NCBI GenBank assembly: GCA_965226495.1
Contig: OZ245365.1
Coordinates: 1,184,001 to 1,248,000, forward strand
DNA length: 64,000 nucleotides
From: Candidatus Marinacidobacterales bacterium
GTDB lineage: Bacteria; Acidobacteriota; Vicinamibacteria; Marinacidobacterales; DATDRI01
Direction: 5' to 3'
Shown here piece after piece: positions 22,811-57,713 of this stretch (position 1 is its first letter; every line of letters starts with the position of its first letter). The translations under genes and the position numbers were made by a program. Below the pieces are notes generated by a model. The model was not told the origin of the DNA, searched no databases, and saw nothing but the letters and a program-made list of their open reading frames with translations.

Positions 22811-23662
22811 CTAGTGAAGGTATCGAAACCCTGTTACGAACACCCAGTCTTTATTCAACCGATGACCGTTCAACTCCTGGTACACGGGGAGTTGGACAGA
22901 CAACTCCAATATCAAGTTGCGCCGCAAGAAGACTTCAACTCCCGGCGAGACAAAAACGGACTCGCCACCCGTTGCAAGGATCTCCGTCCCGTCACGGTTC
23001 GACCGGCTCTCAATGAAGGAGTTGACTTCCAACACGACGAATAGGTCGTTTCGCTCCGGGTACCGGAGGAGGCGATACATGACGGATGCGTCCAGCTGCA
23101 GAAGGTTCCCCGCCTTGAACCCGCTCTCTTTCGTCGTTGCTGTCCACTGGAAATCGGTGTTGACGAACCAACTAGTCGTTGCGTGGGTAAAAATAAGCCC
23201 CTGAAGAAGGTCCGTCGCTCCGGTCGAGAAACCCTCTTGGCCCCAAGGTACCTTCACTCCCAAGAAACCCGCCAGCCGAGAAAAACCACCAGGCCGGTTT
23301 TTCGCATAGAGCCCGTCGTACTGCACGAAAAACATTGGGTCCGCCAAGCTCGTGTCTCTTGGTTGGCCGCCCGGTGAGCCGCTGACTACGGGTACCATAG
23401 CGACCCACATGAGGTGGCGTGGTAGACCGAAGACGAACGTGTTTTCCCAGGCCATCACCGTGTGGTCTCGGTCACGCTCGGGGCGACCGTCCGTGACATC
23501 TAGCGACGGAGGAGATCGTTTCAGGACTCGCCAATCAGACCGATAGAGAAAGTTGCGGACGAACAAAGTTCTAGCCCCGGGGGAGTTGATTTGCCCAGAT
23601 AGGGGCAAGTGCTGAAGCAACAAAACGGACGCCAGGACAAATCGGAGACAGATTAGTCGCAC
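22811..23662 (-). CDS. Putative outer-membrane beta-barrel (MetA/phenol-degradation transporter-like)
   Basis: Signal peptide, alternating beta-strand pattern, GVKVPWG, TGGESVFVSPGV and a C-terminal GFRYLH. Confidence 0.6.
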   Translation of the reverse strand: MRLICLRFVLASVLLLQHLPLSGQINSPGARTLFVRNFLYRSDWRVLKRSPPSLDVTDGRPERDRDHTVMAWENTFVFGLPRHLMWVAMVPVVSGSPGGQPRDTSLADPMFFVQYDGLYAKNRPGGFSRLAGFLGVKVPWGQEGFSTGATDLLQGLIFTHATTSWFVNTDFQWTATTKESGFKAGNLLQLDASVMYRLLRYPERNDLFVVLEVNSFIESRSNRDGTEILATGGESVFVSPGVEVFLRRNLILELSVQLPVYQELNGHRLNKDWVFVTGFRYLH

Positions 23663-23787
23663 GGCGTAAGTCTAGTTACCCGGCCAGAGGTTACCCAAAC
23701 AACACCTACCCTCAGGGTTTCGCAACTCGCAAGCCGAGCGCCCAGCTTCCACGTGTGCATGGATGCGCGATTCGGCAGCGTCGGCGT

Positions 23788-23835
23788 CACACCGAAGCCG
23801 GCGGCGACGGCTCCGAAACCGCTCCATTTGGACAT
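23788..23835 (-). pseudogene. Possible 5' remnant of a MerT-like membrane transporter
   Basis: Strong AGGAG RBS right after the merR stop; MSKWSGFGAVAAGFG resembles the MerT first TM helix, but similarity ends before the expected CC pair. Confidence 0.35.
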
Positions 23836-23844
23836 GACATCTCC

Positions 23845-24463
23845 TCAGGCTTTCTCGTCGGATACGTCGGCAATCACCGGGCATCTCGAACCCTGGTCAA
23901 TCGCCTGAGCGCATTGGTCCCGGTAGTTAGACATTTGTCGATGGAAGCGCTTCATTTCTTTACCCTGCTGGGCGATCTCGACTATTTTCTTGTCGAGGAT
24001 GCCCAACACGCGACGGCAGCTCCCGGGGTTGTCCGGCCGGAGGCCCAGGAGTACCGAGATCTCGTCGAGAGCGAAACCAAAACCCTGCGCGCGTTTGATG
24101 AAACTCAGACGCTGCTCAGCTTTGGGCCCATAAAGGCGGAGAGCCTGATCTGGAACGCCGCTTCATTTCTTTACCCTGCTGGGCGATCTCGACTATTTTC
24201 TTGTCGAGGATGCCCAACACGCGAAGCTCCCGGGGTTGTCCGGCCGGAGGCCCAGGAGTACCGAGATCTCGTCCGAAACCAAAACCCTGCGCGCGTTTGA
24301 TGAAACTCAGACGCTGCTCAGCTTTGGGCCCATAAAGGCGGTAGCCTGATCTGGAACGCCGGCTGGGTTTGAGAATGCCGCGCCGCTCGTAGTACCGGAG
24401 GGTTTCGCGGTTCACACCGGCCCGCAGAGCTAATTCACCGATGAGAAGCGAGTCGTTCTTCAT
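23845..24463 (-). CDS. merR: Heavy-metal-responsive MerR-family regulator, disrupted by an internal ~200-bp tandem duplication
   Basis: IGELA..TLRYYERRG..GYRLY HTH. The reconstructed 138-aa protein has Cys82, Cys117 and Cys127 and ends RCPVIADVSDEKA*. Confidence 0.8.
23948..24361. repeat. Imperfect tandem duplication inside merR
   Basis: 23948-24158 matches 24159-24361; the right copy lacks 4-bp and 5-bp stretches, and the left copy has a 1-bp indel. Confidence 0.95.
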
Positions 24464-24481
24464 TCGATTGCTCTTGGCGCC

Positions 24482-24513
24482 ATTGTAAACCTTTGACTCG
24501 GGTACAGGGTCAA
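24482..24513 (-). promoter_or_regulatory. MerR-type long-spacer promoter/operator
   Basis: TTGACC-20 bp-TACAAT with an imperfect dyad ACCCTGTAC-CCGA-GTCAAAGGT. Confidence 0.8.
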
Positions 24514-24594
24514 GCCCTTTTTTACAACAATCGAGGCTTGCTAGCTATTTCTGGGGGGCGAATGTAAACGGTTCAAATTGGAGGGTTTGTCGCT

Positions 24595-54383: not shown

Positions 54384-54408
54384 GAGGGAGGAGCCGGTCT
54401 CCTCCCTC
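54384..54408. terminator. Hairpin between convergent genes
   Basis: GAGGGAGGAG-ccggt-CTCCTCCCTC perfect 10-bp stem; no U-tract. Confidence 0.55.
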
Positions 54409-55835
54409 TACCGCCTAATTGCGCAGCCCGGAGTGACTCCATCCACGAGCTCGGAATCGCGGACCACGAACACTCCCCCCACCAACACGTGCACGAACCC
54501 CTCGGAGTACTGAGCGGGTTCTTCGAACGTCGCTCGATCGATGACGCTTTCGGGGTCGAAGATGGCTAAGTCCGCGTCGGCTCCCACGCGGATCCGCCCC
54601 TTGTTCTTGAACACGGGCACCGAATCTTCCAGGCGCCGCGCCGGCATGAGGCTCATCTTCCGCAGAGCCTCCATAAGCGTCAATATTTTTCTAGTCCTAA
54701 CGTAGCGCCCGAGTATTCGCGCAAACGTGCCGGCACCCCGCGGGTGAGCCCGGCCGTTGACGAAGGGCACACCGTCGCTGGCGATCATGACCAAAGGATG
54801 ACCCACCGCCAAGTCGACCATCTCCTCGGGAATGATATGGCCGATGATCATTCCGCCCCTCTCCCGATAGAGCGCAAAACTCTCCTCGTCCAGCCGTTCG
54901 CCGGTTGCGACCCACTCGATGTCTCCATAATCGGCTTCGACTCTCTTCCGCCAACCGTCATTGAAGATGGCCGATTCGATGGCCGTCGAAACCGCGGTAT
55001 AAGGGTAAACCTCAGTGGTGACATCGACGCCGCGACCTCGAGCTCCCTCGATCATATCGAGCGCGGTCGGCACTTGGCGAAGACCACTGCTCCCAATATG
55101 AACGATATGAACCGAAGCGCCCAGTGAGGCAGCGTTCGCGATCATCTCTTGGACGGCTTCGACACTGCTTCCCGGCTCGACGGCGCCGGCGTGCCGGATG
55201 TGAACGAAGTTGGTCACCCCATGGTTTTGAGCCACCTGGAACATGCGAATGATCTCTCCTCGACTTGCCGCCGGGGTGTACTGGATTCCGTAGCCCACAC
55301 CGAGAGCGCCTTCGTCCAGGCCCCTTTGGATAAGCCTTCCGATCTCGCCGATCTCGTCCGAGGTTGCGGTTCGGTACGAGACGTCCTGACCTTTTTCAGA
55401 GCGGCCAGGTAAGACGTTCGCTCGCGCCTCGCTGTGACTGACGGTCGCGCCGTAATGTAGCAAGGCCTGGCCTGCCCGCGTCTGGTACCATTCCAACACC
55501 GGAAAGGCTCCACCTTCCATCTCTAGAGCGGTAGTGACGCCATCCATTGCTTGGAACCGGTTGCTTTCGATATTTTGCCCGTGGGCGTGCAGGTCGATGA
55601 AGCCGGGCGCCACCACCAATCCCCGAACGTCTACGAACTCTTCGCCTTCGAGTGGTTGAGCGGAAATTGCAGAGATCTTTCCATCACGAAGACCCACGTA
55701 ACGAATCGCGTCGAGCCCTGATTCGGGATCCATCACCCGGCCTCCTGCCAGCACGAGATCGAGTGCGGGGGGTTCCTGAATGGCTTCGGAGACGAAAGCG
55801 AAGGCGAGGAACAGGAGGAAGCAGTATTTCGACAT
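54408..55835 (-). CDS. Secreted amidohydrolase (D-aminoacylase-like), paralog of 10074-11552
   Basis: APGFIDLHAHGQ and HPRGAGTF motifs. Confidence 0.9.
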   Translation of the reverse strand: MSKYCFLLFLAFAFVSEAIQEPPALDLVLAGGRVMDPESGLDAIRYVGLRDGKISAISAQPLEGEEFVDVRGLVVAPGFIDLHAHGQNIESNRFQAMDGVTTALEMEGGAFPVLEWYQTRAGQALLHYGATVSHSEARANVLPGRSEKGQDVSYRTATSDEIGEIGRLIQRGLDEGALGVGYGIQYTPAASRGEIIRMFQVAQNHGVTNFVHIRHAGAVEPGSSVEAVQEMIANAASLGASVHIVHIGSSGLRQVPTALDMIEGARGRGVDVTTEVYPYTAVSTAIESAIFNDGWRKRVEADYGDIEWVATGERLDEESFALYRERGGMIIGHIIPEEMVDLAVGHPLVMIASDGVPFVNGRAHPRGAGTFARILGRYVRTRKILTLMEALRKMSLMPARRLEDSVPVFKNKGRIRVGADADLAIFDPESVIDRATFEEPAQYSEGFVHVLVGGVFVVRDSELVDGVTPGCAIRR

Positions 55836-55840
55836 CACGG

Positions 55841-56944
55841 TTATCCCCAAAAACTCGTCGCGGTATCGACGAGGAGTTTTAGTTTCGATTTCTGGTCTTC
55901 CACCGAGATGCGGTTCCCCACGACAGACGTGGAGAATCCGCATTGAGGTGAGATGGCGAGGCGCCCAGCGGGCACGAATTTGCTGGCCTCGCGAATGCGG
56001 GCTTCGAGATCTTCCTGTTTTTCCAGTGCCGGAAGCTTGGTATTGACGAGACCGAGCACCACCGTCTTGTCGTCGGGTACGTGCCTCAAAGCTGCGAAGG
56101 AACCGGAGCGCTCATCGTCATACTCGAGAAGAAGCCGCTGTGCTTGGATAGAGCCGAAAAGTTGCTTCGCAATGGGCTCATAGTCACCTTCCGACAGCCA
56201 CCGGCTGTTCTGGTTGCCTCTTCAGAGGTGAAACCCGAACGTGACGTCGGCAAAATCCCCTATCACCGCGTTCTCGAGCTCGACGCCTCGAGCGATCCAG
56301 TACTCTAGACCCCCGCCACGCTCCTCATAGAAAGGCCGGGTTCTCGGGTCGAGGAGCTGCGTGTAGTGCGGGGCGTCGAGCTGAATGTAAGTAGCTCCCA
56401 GCCGAACGAGCTCGGCCACCTCTTCCTGCAAGATCTCGACGACATCTCCCAAGAACGCATCGACGTTCGAGTAAACCTTGGCAGAGTGCTCGGACCAAAA
56501 GTTGGTAAAGAGCGTCGGGCTGGGAAGGGTAACCTTCGGGATGCGCGTAGTCCGGCTGCGGAGGTAAGTGAATTCGTCCGCGGAAAGATGGCGGTGGCGT
56601 TTGAGCTTCGACACGACACCGATAGAAGGCGGGCGCTCGACGGACCAATCACCGAGCTTCTGGCTGTGCCATTTACCCCAGAGGAAGACGTCGATATCGT
56701 GCGCGGCGAAACCCTCGACCGCGTCGGTCATCTGGCTTTGAAAGGAAAGTCTTCGCATCTCGCCGTCGGTGACGACGTCCAGTCCTGCCTCTTCTTGCAG
56801 GTCGATTGCGGCGTCCACCGCGTGGTCTTCTATATCTTTGAAGCTCGACGGGCCGATGCGGCCCGCGGCGAGATCCTCACGAGCGCGAAGAAGCTCTGGT
56901 GGGCGAAGGAGACTTCCGATGACGTCGGTGTGTGAAGTGATCAT
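55841..56944 (-). CDS. Cobalamin-independent methionine synthase II family protein with in-frame TGA (probable Sec) at 56222-56224, 367 aa
   Basis: GSLLRP, TDGEMRR, YIQLDAP, FHL-TGA-RGN, LLEYDDERSG and ISPQCGF all in one frame; the ORF track splits it in two. Confidence 0.88.
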
Positions 56945-56963: not shown

Positions 56964-57713
56964 TCACTTTTTCTGTTTCAATTGACCGGCCACCGCCTCG
57001 GTGGCCCGCTTCACGGCTTCCGGGTCTCCGAGGTAGAAACTTCGGATCGCCGTCAAATCATCTTCTAGCTCGTAAACGAGAGGGATGCCAGTGGGGATGT
57101 TGAGCCCGGCGATTTCCTCATCCGAGACATGGTCTAGATACTTCACCAGCGCGCGAAGGCTGTTGCCGTGCGCGGAAATAATGACTCGCTGACCGGCTCG
57201 CACGCTCGGAGCGATCGTATCGTGCCAGTAGGGGAGAAATCGCTCGACCGTGTCCTTGAGGCACTCCGTCAAGGGAAGCTCATCAGCCGAGAGATCGGCG
57301 TACCGAGGATCTTTGCCCGGGAAGCGCTCGTCGTCAGGAGTTAGCGCCGGCGGCGGCACGTCGTAGCTGCGGCGCCACACATTGGTCTGTTCGATCCCGT
57401 GCTTTTCTGCAGTCTCCGTCTTGTTGAGACCCTGAAGCGCGCCATAGTGACGCTCGTTGAGCCGCCAGCTGCGGTGCACCGGGATCCACATGAGGTCCAT
57501 CTCTTCCAGGGCAAGCCACAACGTTTTGATGGCTCGCTTCTGCAGAGATGTAAAGGCGACATCGAAAACGTAGCCTTCGTTCCGCAAGAGCCGTCCGGCT
57601 TCGATCGCCTCCTGAGTGCCCTTCTCCGTCAATCCGACATCCGTCCAGCCGGTGAAGCGGTTTTCCAAGTTCCATGTGCTTTGACCGTGTCGAATGAGGA
57701 CGAGCTCTTTCAT
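56964..57713 (-). CDS. gpmA: 2,3-BPG-dependent phosphoglycerate mutase
   Basis: [19 protein letters not shown] and AHGNSLR motifs. Confidence 0.98.

Follow-up and report, generated by a model that had tools for sequence, protein, structure and literature searches.

In MetE, the catalytic zinc, by which the homocysteine thiol is activated, is bound at a His-x-Cys...Glu...Cys site, and an N-terminal barrel helps to hold the methyltetrahydrofolate polyglutamate. Selenocysteine (Sec) has, to our knowledge, a different setting: the known selenoproteins are overwhelmingly redox enzymes, and the cases of metal-bound Sec that we know of concern Mo/W or Ni in redox enzymes, a metalloid, or transport and chaperone proteins. 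The zinc ligands of E. coli MetE are H641, C643, E665 and C726, and its homocysteine-binding residues are Ser433, Glu484 and Asp599 (PMC7857596, in excerpt). According to the same excerpts, the core methionine synthases MesA–MesD consist of one MetE-like barrel in which the zinc and homocysteine residues are conserved, and their methyl donor is not methyl-folate where it was characterised (PMC7857596). Half-size MetE homologues have also been placed in methionine regulons, where their role is called unclear (PMC3228920, PMC4239095, PMC6004538). We analysed a stretch of 64,000 nucleotides (the window; positions 1,184,001 to 1,248,000 of contig OZ245365.1) from a Candidatus Marinacidobacterales bacterium, which carries a core MetE-like (Meth_synt_2) gene at 55841..56944 on the minus strand. 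A single TGA interrupts the frame of this gene, and it is very probable that this codon is decoded as Sec, giving a full-length core MetE-like enzyme with Sec at a zinc-ligand position.

Translation of the minus strand over 55841–56944 gave one frame of 367 sense codons, starting with ATG at 56944–56942 and ending with TAA at 55843–55841, in which TGA is the sole internal stop. The open reading frames (ORFs) listed at 56222–56944 (240 aa) and 55841–56089 (82 aa) are thus two parts of the same frame, broken only by the TGA at 56224–56222, as an earlier note made from the letters of this DNA had claimed. That note had also described the region between the two ORFs as intact and the later Cys as present; we observed both, the former as LLLEYDDERSG with E274 and the latter as SPQCGF with C335. 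The proposed Sec codon (56222..56224, minus strand) is residue 241 in the context TFGFHL-U-RGNQNSRWL, at the position where the H-x-C zinc motif has its Cys.

The read-through protein matched PF01717 (Meth_synt_2) with 72.2 bits over residues 6–361, against a gathering score of 21. Its top NCBIfam families, PRK06520 (243 bits) and PRK06233 (220.1 bits), were matched over the full length. By sequence, the best solved structure was PDB 1ypx_A (E 7.8e-51), a Listeria 'putative vitamin-B12 independent methionine synthase family protein' that can be aligned from end to end. It is likewise a single barrel (375 aa, compared with 367 here), and the HxC-RGN, LEYD-ERSG and SPQCGF motifs occur in both proteins; the difference is that a UGA, most likely read as Sec, stands here for the first Cys. 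The nearest full-length relatives in the databases were 64–69% identical and are named either like 1YPX or as 'cobalamin-independent methionine synthase II family'. An AlphaFold2 (AF2) model of the protein (pLDDT 90.8, pTM 0.91) had as its top structural matches the catalytic barrel of T. maritima MetE, 1t7l (TMq 0.77), and 1ypx (TMt 0.87).

Other members of the superfamily were more remote. The profile for full-length MetE, TIGR01371, gave 51 bits at profile positions 428–733 only, far below its cut-off of 929.95, and the MesD-like profile PRK09121 gave 56 bits. MesD itself (PDB 3RPD, ACIAD3523), a core methionine synthase that needs oxygen and MesX, is distant from the gene product (3rpd_A, E 2.6e-10; TMq 0.72 for the AF2 model) and cannot be counted as a close relative; no DUF1852 (MesX)-like gene was found among the flanking genes, where alone DUF1852 was sought. 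The MetE proteins of E. coli, T. maritima and C. albicans share with the protein the fold of the catalytic barrel and the equivalents of the zinc and homocysteine residues, but they have about 750 aa, compared with 367, and the gene described here lacks the N-terminal barrel and has Sec in place of Cys643. From the profile scores, the alignments with 1YPX and MetE and the structural matches, we concluded that the encoded protein is a single-barrel 'core' relative of MetE belonging to the 1YPX branch and lacking the MetE N-terminal barrel. A full MetH (1713.7 bits) is encoded in the same genome, as are three paralogues of the protein that are of the Cys type and more distant (25–34% identity); a full-length MetE was not found in it.

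Next, we compared the residues of the zinc and homocysteine sites. In the alignments, residue U241 falls on the Cys of the HICRGN segment of 1ypx and on that of HFCYSD in C. albicans MetE, and, by homology, this alignment makes U241 a putative zinc ligand. The earlier note had proposed a probable Sec at the zinc-ligand position of a MetE-like enzyme, and the alignments with 1YPX and the fungal MetE agree with that proposal. The other three putative ligands would be His239, the first ligand (H of H-x-U; codon at 56228..56230), Glu274, the third (LLLEYDD; 56123..56125), and Cys335, the fourth (SPQCGF; 55940..55942), all on the minus strand. His239 corresponds to the His of the HxC motif of both 1ypx and MetE, Glu274 to the Glu in the IEFS segment of C. 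albicans MetE, and Cys335 to the Cys of PDCG in MetE and of SPQCGF in 1ypx; the segment LLLEYDDERSG lies on FLEYDNERSG of 1YPX. On C. albicans MetE, HLU, LEY and SPQCGF fell on HFC, IEF and PDCG, while VIGS, TDGE and QLDAP fell on TIGS, HGE and QVDEP. The latter three segments hold the equivalents of the homocysteine-binding residues of E. coli MetE, namely Ser11 (VIGS; 56912..56914, minus strand) for Ser433, aligned with TIGS of C. albicans MetE, Glu62 (TDGEMRR; 56759..56761, minus strand) for Glu484, aligned with HGEPER of MetE, and Asp190 (IQLDAPH; 56375..56377, minus strand) for Asp599, aligned with IQVDEPA of MetE. All seven positions (H239, U/C241, E274, C335, S11, E62 and D190) were invariant in 13 orthologues and in 52 homologues down to 29% identity.

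The TGA recurred at the same place in relatives. Among 61 related genomes, 11 (this genome, G000, included) had a best match of at least 62% identity; in 10 of these the match contained one TGA, and the remaining genome, G058, had the Cys form. A sample of 401 genomes from the phylum yielded two further TGA forms (G365 and G188) and a second Cys form (G126). The TGA was the codon following H-[LVI] in all 12 Sec-form genome loci, and the two orthologous Cys-form genome loci had TGC. In 80 metagenome loci, which are the best of 570 matches to an orthologue alignment built mostly from Sec forms, the codon was TGA in 28, TGC in 35 and TGT in 17 cases, where 28 of 80 is not an unbiased frequency because the query was dominated by Sec forms. 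The Sec form was hence seen at the DNA level in 40 loci (12 from genomes and 28 from metagenomes), in which the stop was always TGA and always the same codon, and the relatives are not restricted to Cys (28 TGA versus 52 TGC or TGT in the metagenome loci). In a search of genome contigs with the single protein two close loci were obtained, and the relatives in named records were metagenome-assembled genomes of 'Candidatus Marinacidobacterales'.

A second view of this recurrence came from the protein databases. Among the 120 best matches to residues 1–240 there were 99 new proteins, and 97 of them ended exactly at the Sec codon: 92 had at most 262 aa, every one of which (92/92) ended with H-[LVIMF] at that codon, and five were longer. 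With 97 database proteins ending at the Sec codon, the Sec form is common in public data and is cut short by gene callers.

An error in the reads as the origin of the TGA was excluded. We found near-identical DNA in 18 public runs from at least seven studies and compared four of these runs. Two near-identical contigs from two studies spanned the whole stretch without differences, one of which may be the source of this DNA. In a third study, a contig of a strain variant covering 56161–56288 had 6 differences, and neighbouring synonymous sites were changed while 56222–56224 was not. The contigs of these three further studies therefore had no difference at the TGA, which was also present in 39 other loci. 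Strain variation was also seen in one metagenome (run X9), where several variants with up to 30 differences per 286 nt occurred; the TGA was kept in every covering contig, and one contig had 84 nt at 56544–56629 replaced by 81 other letters.

If the UGA were a real stop, the gene would be a pseudogene or would encode an N-terminal fragment of 240 residues, and the downstream frame would be a relic. Gene callers do treat the codon as a stop, the 97 of 120 best database matches that end there can be read in the same way, and one relative (L028 in G018) has an extra in-frame TAG upstream. A stop of this kind, however, is hard to reconcile with a codon that is the same one, and always TGA, in 40 of 40 loci, and with what follows it. 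The 126 codons after the TGA were open in 35 Sec-form loci, and the median ratio of non-synonymous to synonymous substitution rates (dN/dS), calculated from an alignment of 34 Sec forms (the short row L103 was left out), was about 0.17 downstream of the TGA (16 pairs) versus 0.13 upstream (13 unsaturated pairs). The invariant codons of E274 and C335 also lie downstream, so that a 240-residue fragment would be left without half of the barrel and without two zinc ligands. We therefore consider a real stop extremely improbable.

Two side observations concern loci of this type. The locus L028 (G018:C1:5539862-5540962) has the conserved TGA together with an in-frame TAG in its N-terminal part, and only 24 codons are open before the TGA; a pseudogene or a faulty assembly of G018 may explain this. 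Distant MetE-like matches with 31–54% identity over parts, in which a TGA is inside the match or the match is split, were found at G014:C4:227316-228358 and G055:C1:223456-224355; they might represent either additional paralogues of the Sec type or genes that are broken.

We also examined how the Sec and Cys forms are related by means of a quick maximum-likelihood tree that comprised 34 Sec and 46 Cys forms (80 orthologues in total; L103 was left out), rooted on three paralogue-like rows of 47–49%. The two forms were interspersed in this tree. The fewest changes that account for them numbered 10, and at least two are forced by the starred branches. A clade of 14 made up of Sec forms only and the clade of eight Sec forms to which the window gene itself belongs each had 100% support. 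Switching between Cys and Sec is easy, since TGC and TGA are one base apart and the core of the hairpin described below is already present in half of the Cys forms.

The genome has a complete system for the insertion of Sec. SelB (377.7 bits), SelA (570.1 bits) and tRNA-Sec (70.9 bits) were all over their curated cut-offs, and ARAGORN reported the tRNA-SeC with the anticodon tca. SelD (332.6 bits) was likewise over its cut-off, and its gene (L041, G000:C1:5697778-5698710, outside the window) has an in-frame UGA of its own in TSAG-U-ASK, followed by a hairpin GUCC-AGU-GGAC whose loop lies 17 nt after the UGA. A gene for a formate dehydrogenase (fdh) alpha subunit (L131, G000:C1:1800365-1803361, also outside the window) has a UGA in RL-U-HGP and a hairpin with a 10-bp stem, in which the loop GUC is 19 nt after the UGA; one TAG is also contained in the L131 match. 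SelB was over the cut-off in 57 of the 61 relatives, in five of five further genomes and in 11 of the 12 Sec-form genomes, and the Cys-form genomes had it likewise.

With these results, none of three findings that could have overturned the proposal of the earlier note (a read error, relatives with Cys only, a genome lacking tRNA-Sec or SelB) was made; the genes for tRNA-Sec, SelB, SelA and SelD are all present. The second Sec candidate that it cites in support of a Sec-rich host was not found in the window. There were 86 single-TGA read-through candidates in the window, of which 28 were dropped as shorter or overlapping, and among the 58 scanned no Pfam domain spanned the TGA. Outside the window, the genome has the Sec-type selD and fdh genes described above.

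Downstream of the UGA of the MetE-like gene lies the SECIS-like (selenocysteine insertion sequence-like) hairpin ACAGCC-GGU-GGCUGU at 56194..56208 on the minus strand, which the earlier note had pointed out and which we located with ACAGCC at 56208–56203, GGT at 56202–56200 and GGCTGT at 56199–56194. Exactly 19 nt separate the TGA from its loop. In E. coli fdhF, GGUC lies 18 nt after the UGA. From the hairpins of selD, fdh and the MetE-like gene of this genome, GU is found at the same distance within 1–2 nt in all three. The MetE-like gene thus resembles the Sec genes for formate dehydrogenase and SelD in having a UGA on the Cys of its homologues and a downstream hairpin with a GU loop at about +20. 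It differs from them in that the proposed residue, instead of being redox-active or bound to Mo, would coordinate a catalytic zinc without a redox role, and in that the hairpin is shorter than the 10-bp fdh stem and is in large part fixed by the protein sequence.

The core common to the relatives is CAGCC-G(G/U)U-GGCUG. Its inner part, AGCC-GNU-GGCU, is spelled by the codons AGC-CGN-TGG-CTN of an S-R-W-L motif, and the hairpin is therefore evidential only through its synonymous sites. These differed between the two forms. The Arg codon of the loop was CGG in 33, CGT in 6 and AGG in 1 of the 40 Sec forms, whereas the 53 Cys forms had CGC in 37, CGT in 9, CGG in 4 and CGA in 3 cases. When distinct segments of 54 nt were compared (37 Sec and 49 Cys), the loop was GGU or GUU in 37 of 37 Sec segments versus 12 of 49 Cys segments (Fisher p 3.7e-14, relatedness ignored), and the complete 5-bp core was present in 32 of 37 versus 24 of 49 (p 4.9e-4, relatedness again ignored). 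The mean minimum free energy was −10.5 kcal/mol for the Sec and −8.9 kcal/mol for the Cys segments.

Codon usage in the motif was also restricted. The codon entropies of S(+6), R(+7) and L(+9) were 0.21, 0.71 and 0.97 bits in the Sec forms, where the mean over 116 informative columns was 1.71, and these three codons fell in the lowest 1%, 3% and 4%, respectively, of the Sec-form codon entropies. In the Cys forms the corresponding values were 0.30, 1.28 and 1.43 versus a mean of 1.52. RNAalifold predicted the 5-bp core on the 37 distinct Sec-form segments. In a version with eight pairs, 85.8% of the cells were paired, compared with 70.6% for the best slid version, and the covariation score was 0.099 versus 0.071 in shuffles (reached by 0 of 500); the pair 18:30 was seen as C:G, A:U, G:U and U:G. 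The codon at +10 after the UGA (56191–56193, minus strand), which encodes the residue following S-R-W-L, differed between the two forms: in 39 of 40 Sec forms it specified Ser, Ala or Thr, whereas in 43 of 53 Cys forms it specified Val or Met. The RNA element may constrain the protein sequence at this codon, because its second base, C, can pair with G16 of the lower stem.

The same observations bear on a read-through that does not involve selenium. Here, Trp, Cys or Gly would be inserted by a near-cognate or suppressor tRNA, or Cys by a Cys-charged tRNA-Sec-like species, and the product would again be of full length. The inserted residue is not readable from the sequence, and a Cys at 241 would work, since most relatives have Cys there. 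TGA is, however, an ordinary stop in this DNA, where it ends 14 of the 36 window ORFs of at least 250 aa and also the upstream neighbour gene, and the Sec system is complete down to a tRNA-Sec with the anticodon tca. Moreover, a stem conserved at synonymous sites, with a G(G/U)U loop at 19 nt as in selD and fdh, is not something that plain read-through would select. These points make a read-through without selenium very unlikely, and argue for the decoding of the UGA as Sec.

Several points nevertheless weigh against a Sec-decoded zinc enzyme. The curated cut-offs of PRK06520 (313) and PRK06233 (576) were not reached, and we know of no member of the 1YPX branch with a proven reaction; the zinc-ligand role of residue 241 is a putative one drawn from alignment. 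The hairpin is short (5–6 bp), the S-R-W-L motif that largely dictates its core also occurs in the Cys forms, and its outer three pairs were unpaired in 9–15 of the 37 sequences. The folding energy of a 66-nt stretch was not significant (z = −0.12; 81 of 200 shuffles were at least as stable) and is therefore not counted as support, while the covariation was modest, with double changes at 2 of 8 pairs and in three cells. The Fisher p-values given above overstate independence because the sequences are related, just as the metagenome counts lean towards the Sec form. Among the Sec-form genomes, G001 (91% complete) had no SelB match over the cut-off, and because nearly all genomes of the lineage have SelB, finding it together with the Sec form is of little discriminating value. 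Finally, one metatranscriptome run (X19) covered the gene with a single contig of 158 nt (56777–56934 only), and that library may contain DNA; this contig speaks neither for nor against expression of the gene as a whole.

How Sec decoding and catalysis might proceed can be outlined as follows. UGA codon 241 would be decoded as Sec by SelB and tRNA-Sec, with SelB carrying Sec-tRNA-Sec and binding the in-gene hairpin CAGCC-G(G/U)U-GGCUG as the ribosome reaches the UGA. Sec241 would then replace the first Cys of the His-x-Cys...Glu...Cys site, and the zinc would, by homology, be held by His239, Sec241, Glu274 and Cys335. An amino-acid thiol, most likely that of homocysteine, would displace the Glu on the zinc and would then be methylated as in MetE. 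Since the site is of the MetE type, which activates the homocysteine thiol, the most likely reaction is methyl (or alkyl) transfer to zinc-bound homocysteine or to a close amino-acid thiol. As a guess at why Sec is used, its softer and fully ionised selenolate might lower the Lewis acidity of the zinc and render the thiolate bound to it more nucleophilic; another possibility is that Sec makes the zinc site recoverable after oxidation. Selenium insertion, zinc binding by Sec, the substrate and the advantage of Sec are points that we infer.

It is also conceivable that Sec is inserted and yet is not a passive zinc ligand. It could act as an alkyl acceptor or as a redox switch, the site could hold another metal, or the substrate could contain selenium. 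In the majority of known selenoproteins Sec is itself the reactive residue of catalysis, as a 2026 review states, and the proteins listed there include a methylated-DNA-protein-cysteine methyltransferase and an arsenite methyltransferase, both of the Sec type (PMC13188914). The zinc-site Cys residues of MetE and YxjG are, in addition, described as targets of oxidation or thiolation in the excerpted text of PMC4360819. However, neither the Sec nor the Cys forms showed any variation at the three remaining zinc ligands or at the three positions that bind homocysteine. These invariant residues and the interspersed occurrence of the two forms on the tree argue for the same reaction in both, and such a changed chemistry at residue 241 appears unlikely. 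A role of Sec241 as a ligand of the catalytic zinc is the reading we prefer.

We then asked whether such a protein has been catalogued. The prokaryotic selenoproteome was reviewed in 2026, with 119 families and subfamilies covered by Table 1, and the terms 'methionine synthase', 'MetE', 'homocysteine' and 'PF01717' do not occur in the text of that review (PMC13188914). Nor do they occur in the main text of deep-Sep (PMC12013277) or in that of BSepDB (PMC13326102). A full-text search of the literature returned nothing on a MetE-type or Meth_synt_2 selenoprotein, and no selenoprotein-specific NCBIfam model matched the read-through protein. The nearest analogues in the part of the review considered are the Sec-type arsenite methyltransferase and the predicted metal-binding selenoproteins CobW-related, MbdU and SaoB/SaoC (PMC13188914). 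As far as they are described there, these resemble the present protein in having Sec at a metal or metalloid site and in not being classic oxidoreductases. They differ from it in their folds and chemistry (S-adenosylmethionine-dependent, transport or chaperone), and none among them is a zinc alkyltransferase of the MetE type. The fold and the recoding mechanism are both known; what would be new is the proposed Sec at a catalytic non-redox zinc site, in a family that is uncatalogued in the literature examined.

This leads to a more general proposal, for which we see roughly even chances: that the protein is the first natural catalytic zinc-selenolate site, that is, a non-redox thiol-alkylating enzyme with Sec as a first-shell zinc ligand, whose gene family carries a latent SECIS-like hairpin in its S-R-W-L motif. 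As the motif encodes this latent hairpin, a Cys form would be few changes away from a Sec form. One change from TGC to TGA and one or two synonymous changes would suffice, which would explain the repeated switches on the tree.

The Sec form occurs widely among Acidobacteriota as well as in metagenomes from soil and sediment, but gene callers cut it to 240 residues. If the proposal holds, the supply of selenium would feed the methionine-type metabolism of these bacteria. With Sec as a ligand of a catalytic zinc that has no redox role, selenium would serve in a way that differs from its known uses. In MetE of B. subtilis and C. glutamicum, and in YxjG, the Cys of the zinc site becomes S-thiolated under oxidative stress, and methionine starvation results, according to the excerpts of PMC4360819; a selenolate at a MetE-type zinc site that is prone to oxidation would accordingly offer a testable adaptive reason (PMC4360819). 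Natural pairs of Sec and Cys forms, of which there are dozens and which are closely related, would allow the effect of a selenolate on the Lewis acidity of zinc, or on protection from oxidation, to be compared. At least 97 public protein clusters end at the Sec codon and look like mis-called truncations, and annotation pipelines and selenoprotein catalogues probably miss this MetE-like Sec family.

The genes flanking the MetE-like gene encode an amidohydrolase, a His_Phos_1 (GpmA-like) protein, a glyoxalase, a HerA-like ATPase and a PIN protein. No conserved neighbour was found: the largest recurring group contained 9 of 143 flanking ORFs from 90 loci, and the neighbourhoods gave no hint to the methyl donor. 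A search of 20 loci with Rfam at gathering thresholds gave no match either (no SAM riboswitch, T-box or curated SECIS). In the window, the His_Phos_1 gene (56964–57713, minus strand) ends in a TGA 20 nt upstream of the MetE-like gene, whose own stop lies about 100 nt inside the ORF 54408–55943 (minus strand; ORF start as listed) for the amidohydrolase, which has a signal-like N-terminus. This tight spacing on the same strand suggests co-transcription. The arrangement of His_Phos_1, MetE-like and amidohydrolase genes is not kept in relatives.

Elsewhere in the window, at 23656–24544 on the minus strand, a MerR-family gene appears to be split over two frames, with the MerR helix-turn-helix at 23963–24544 and the MerR DNA-binding part at 23656–24162. 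One of the frames contains a repeat of about 16 residues, and a duplication or a frameshift may lie behind this.

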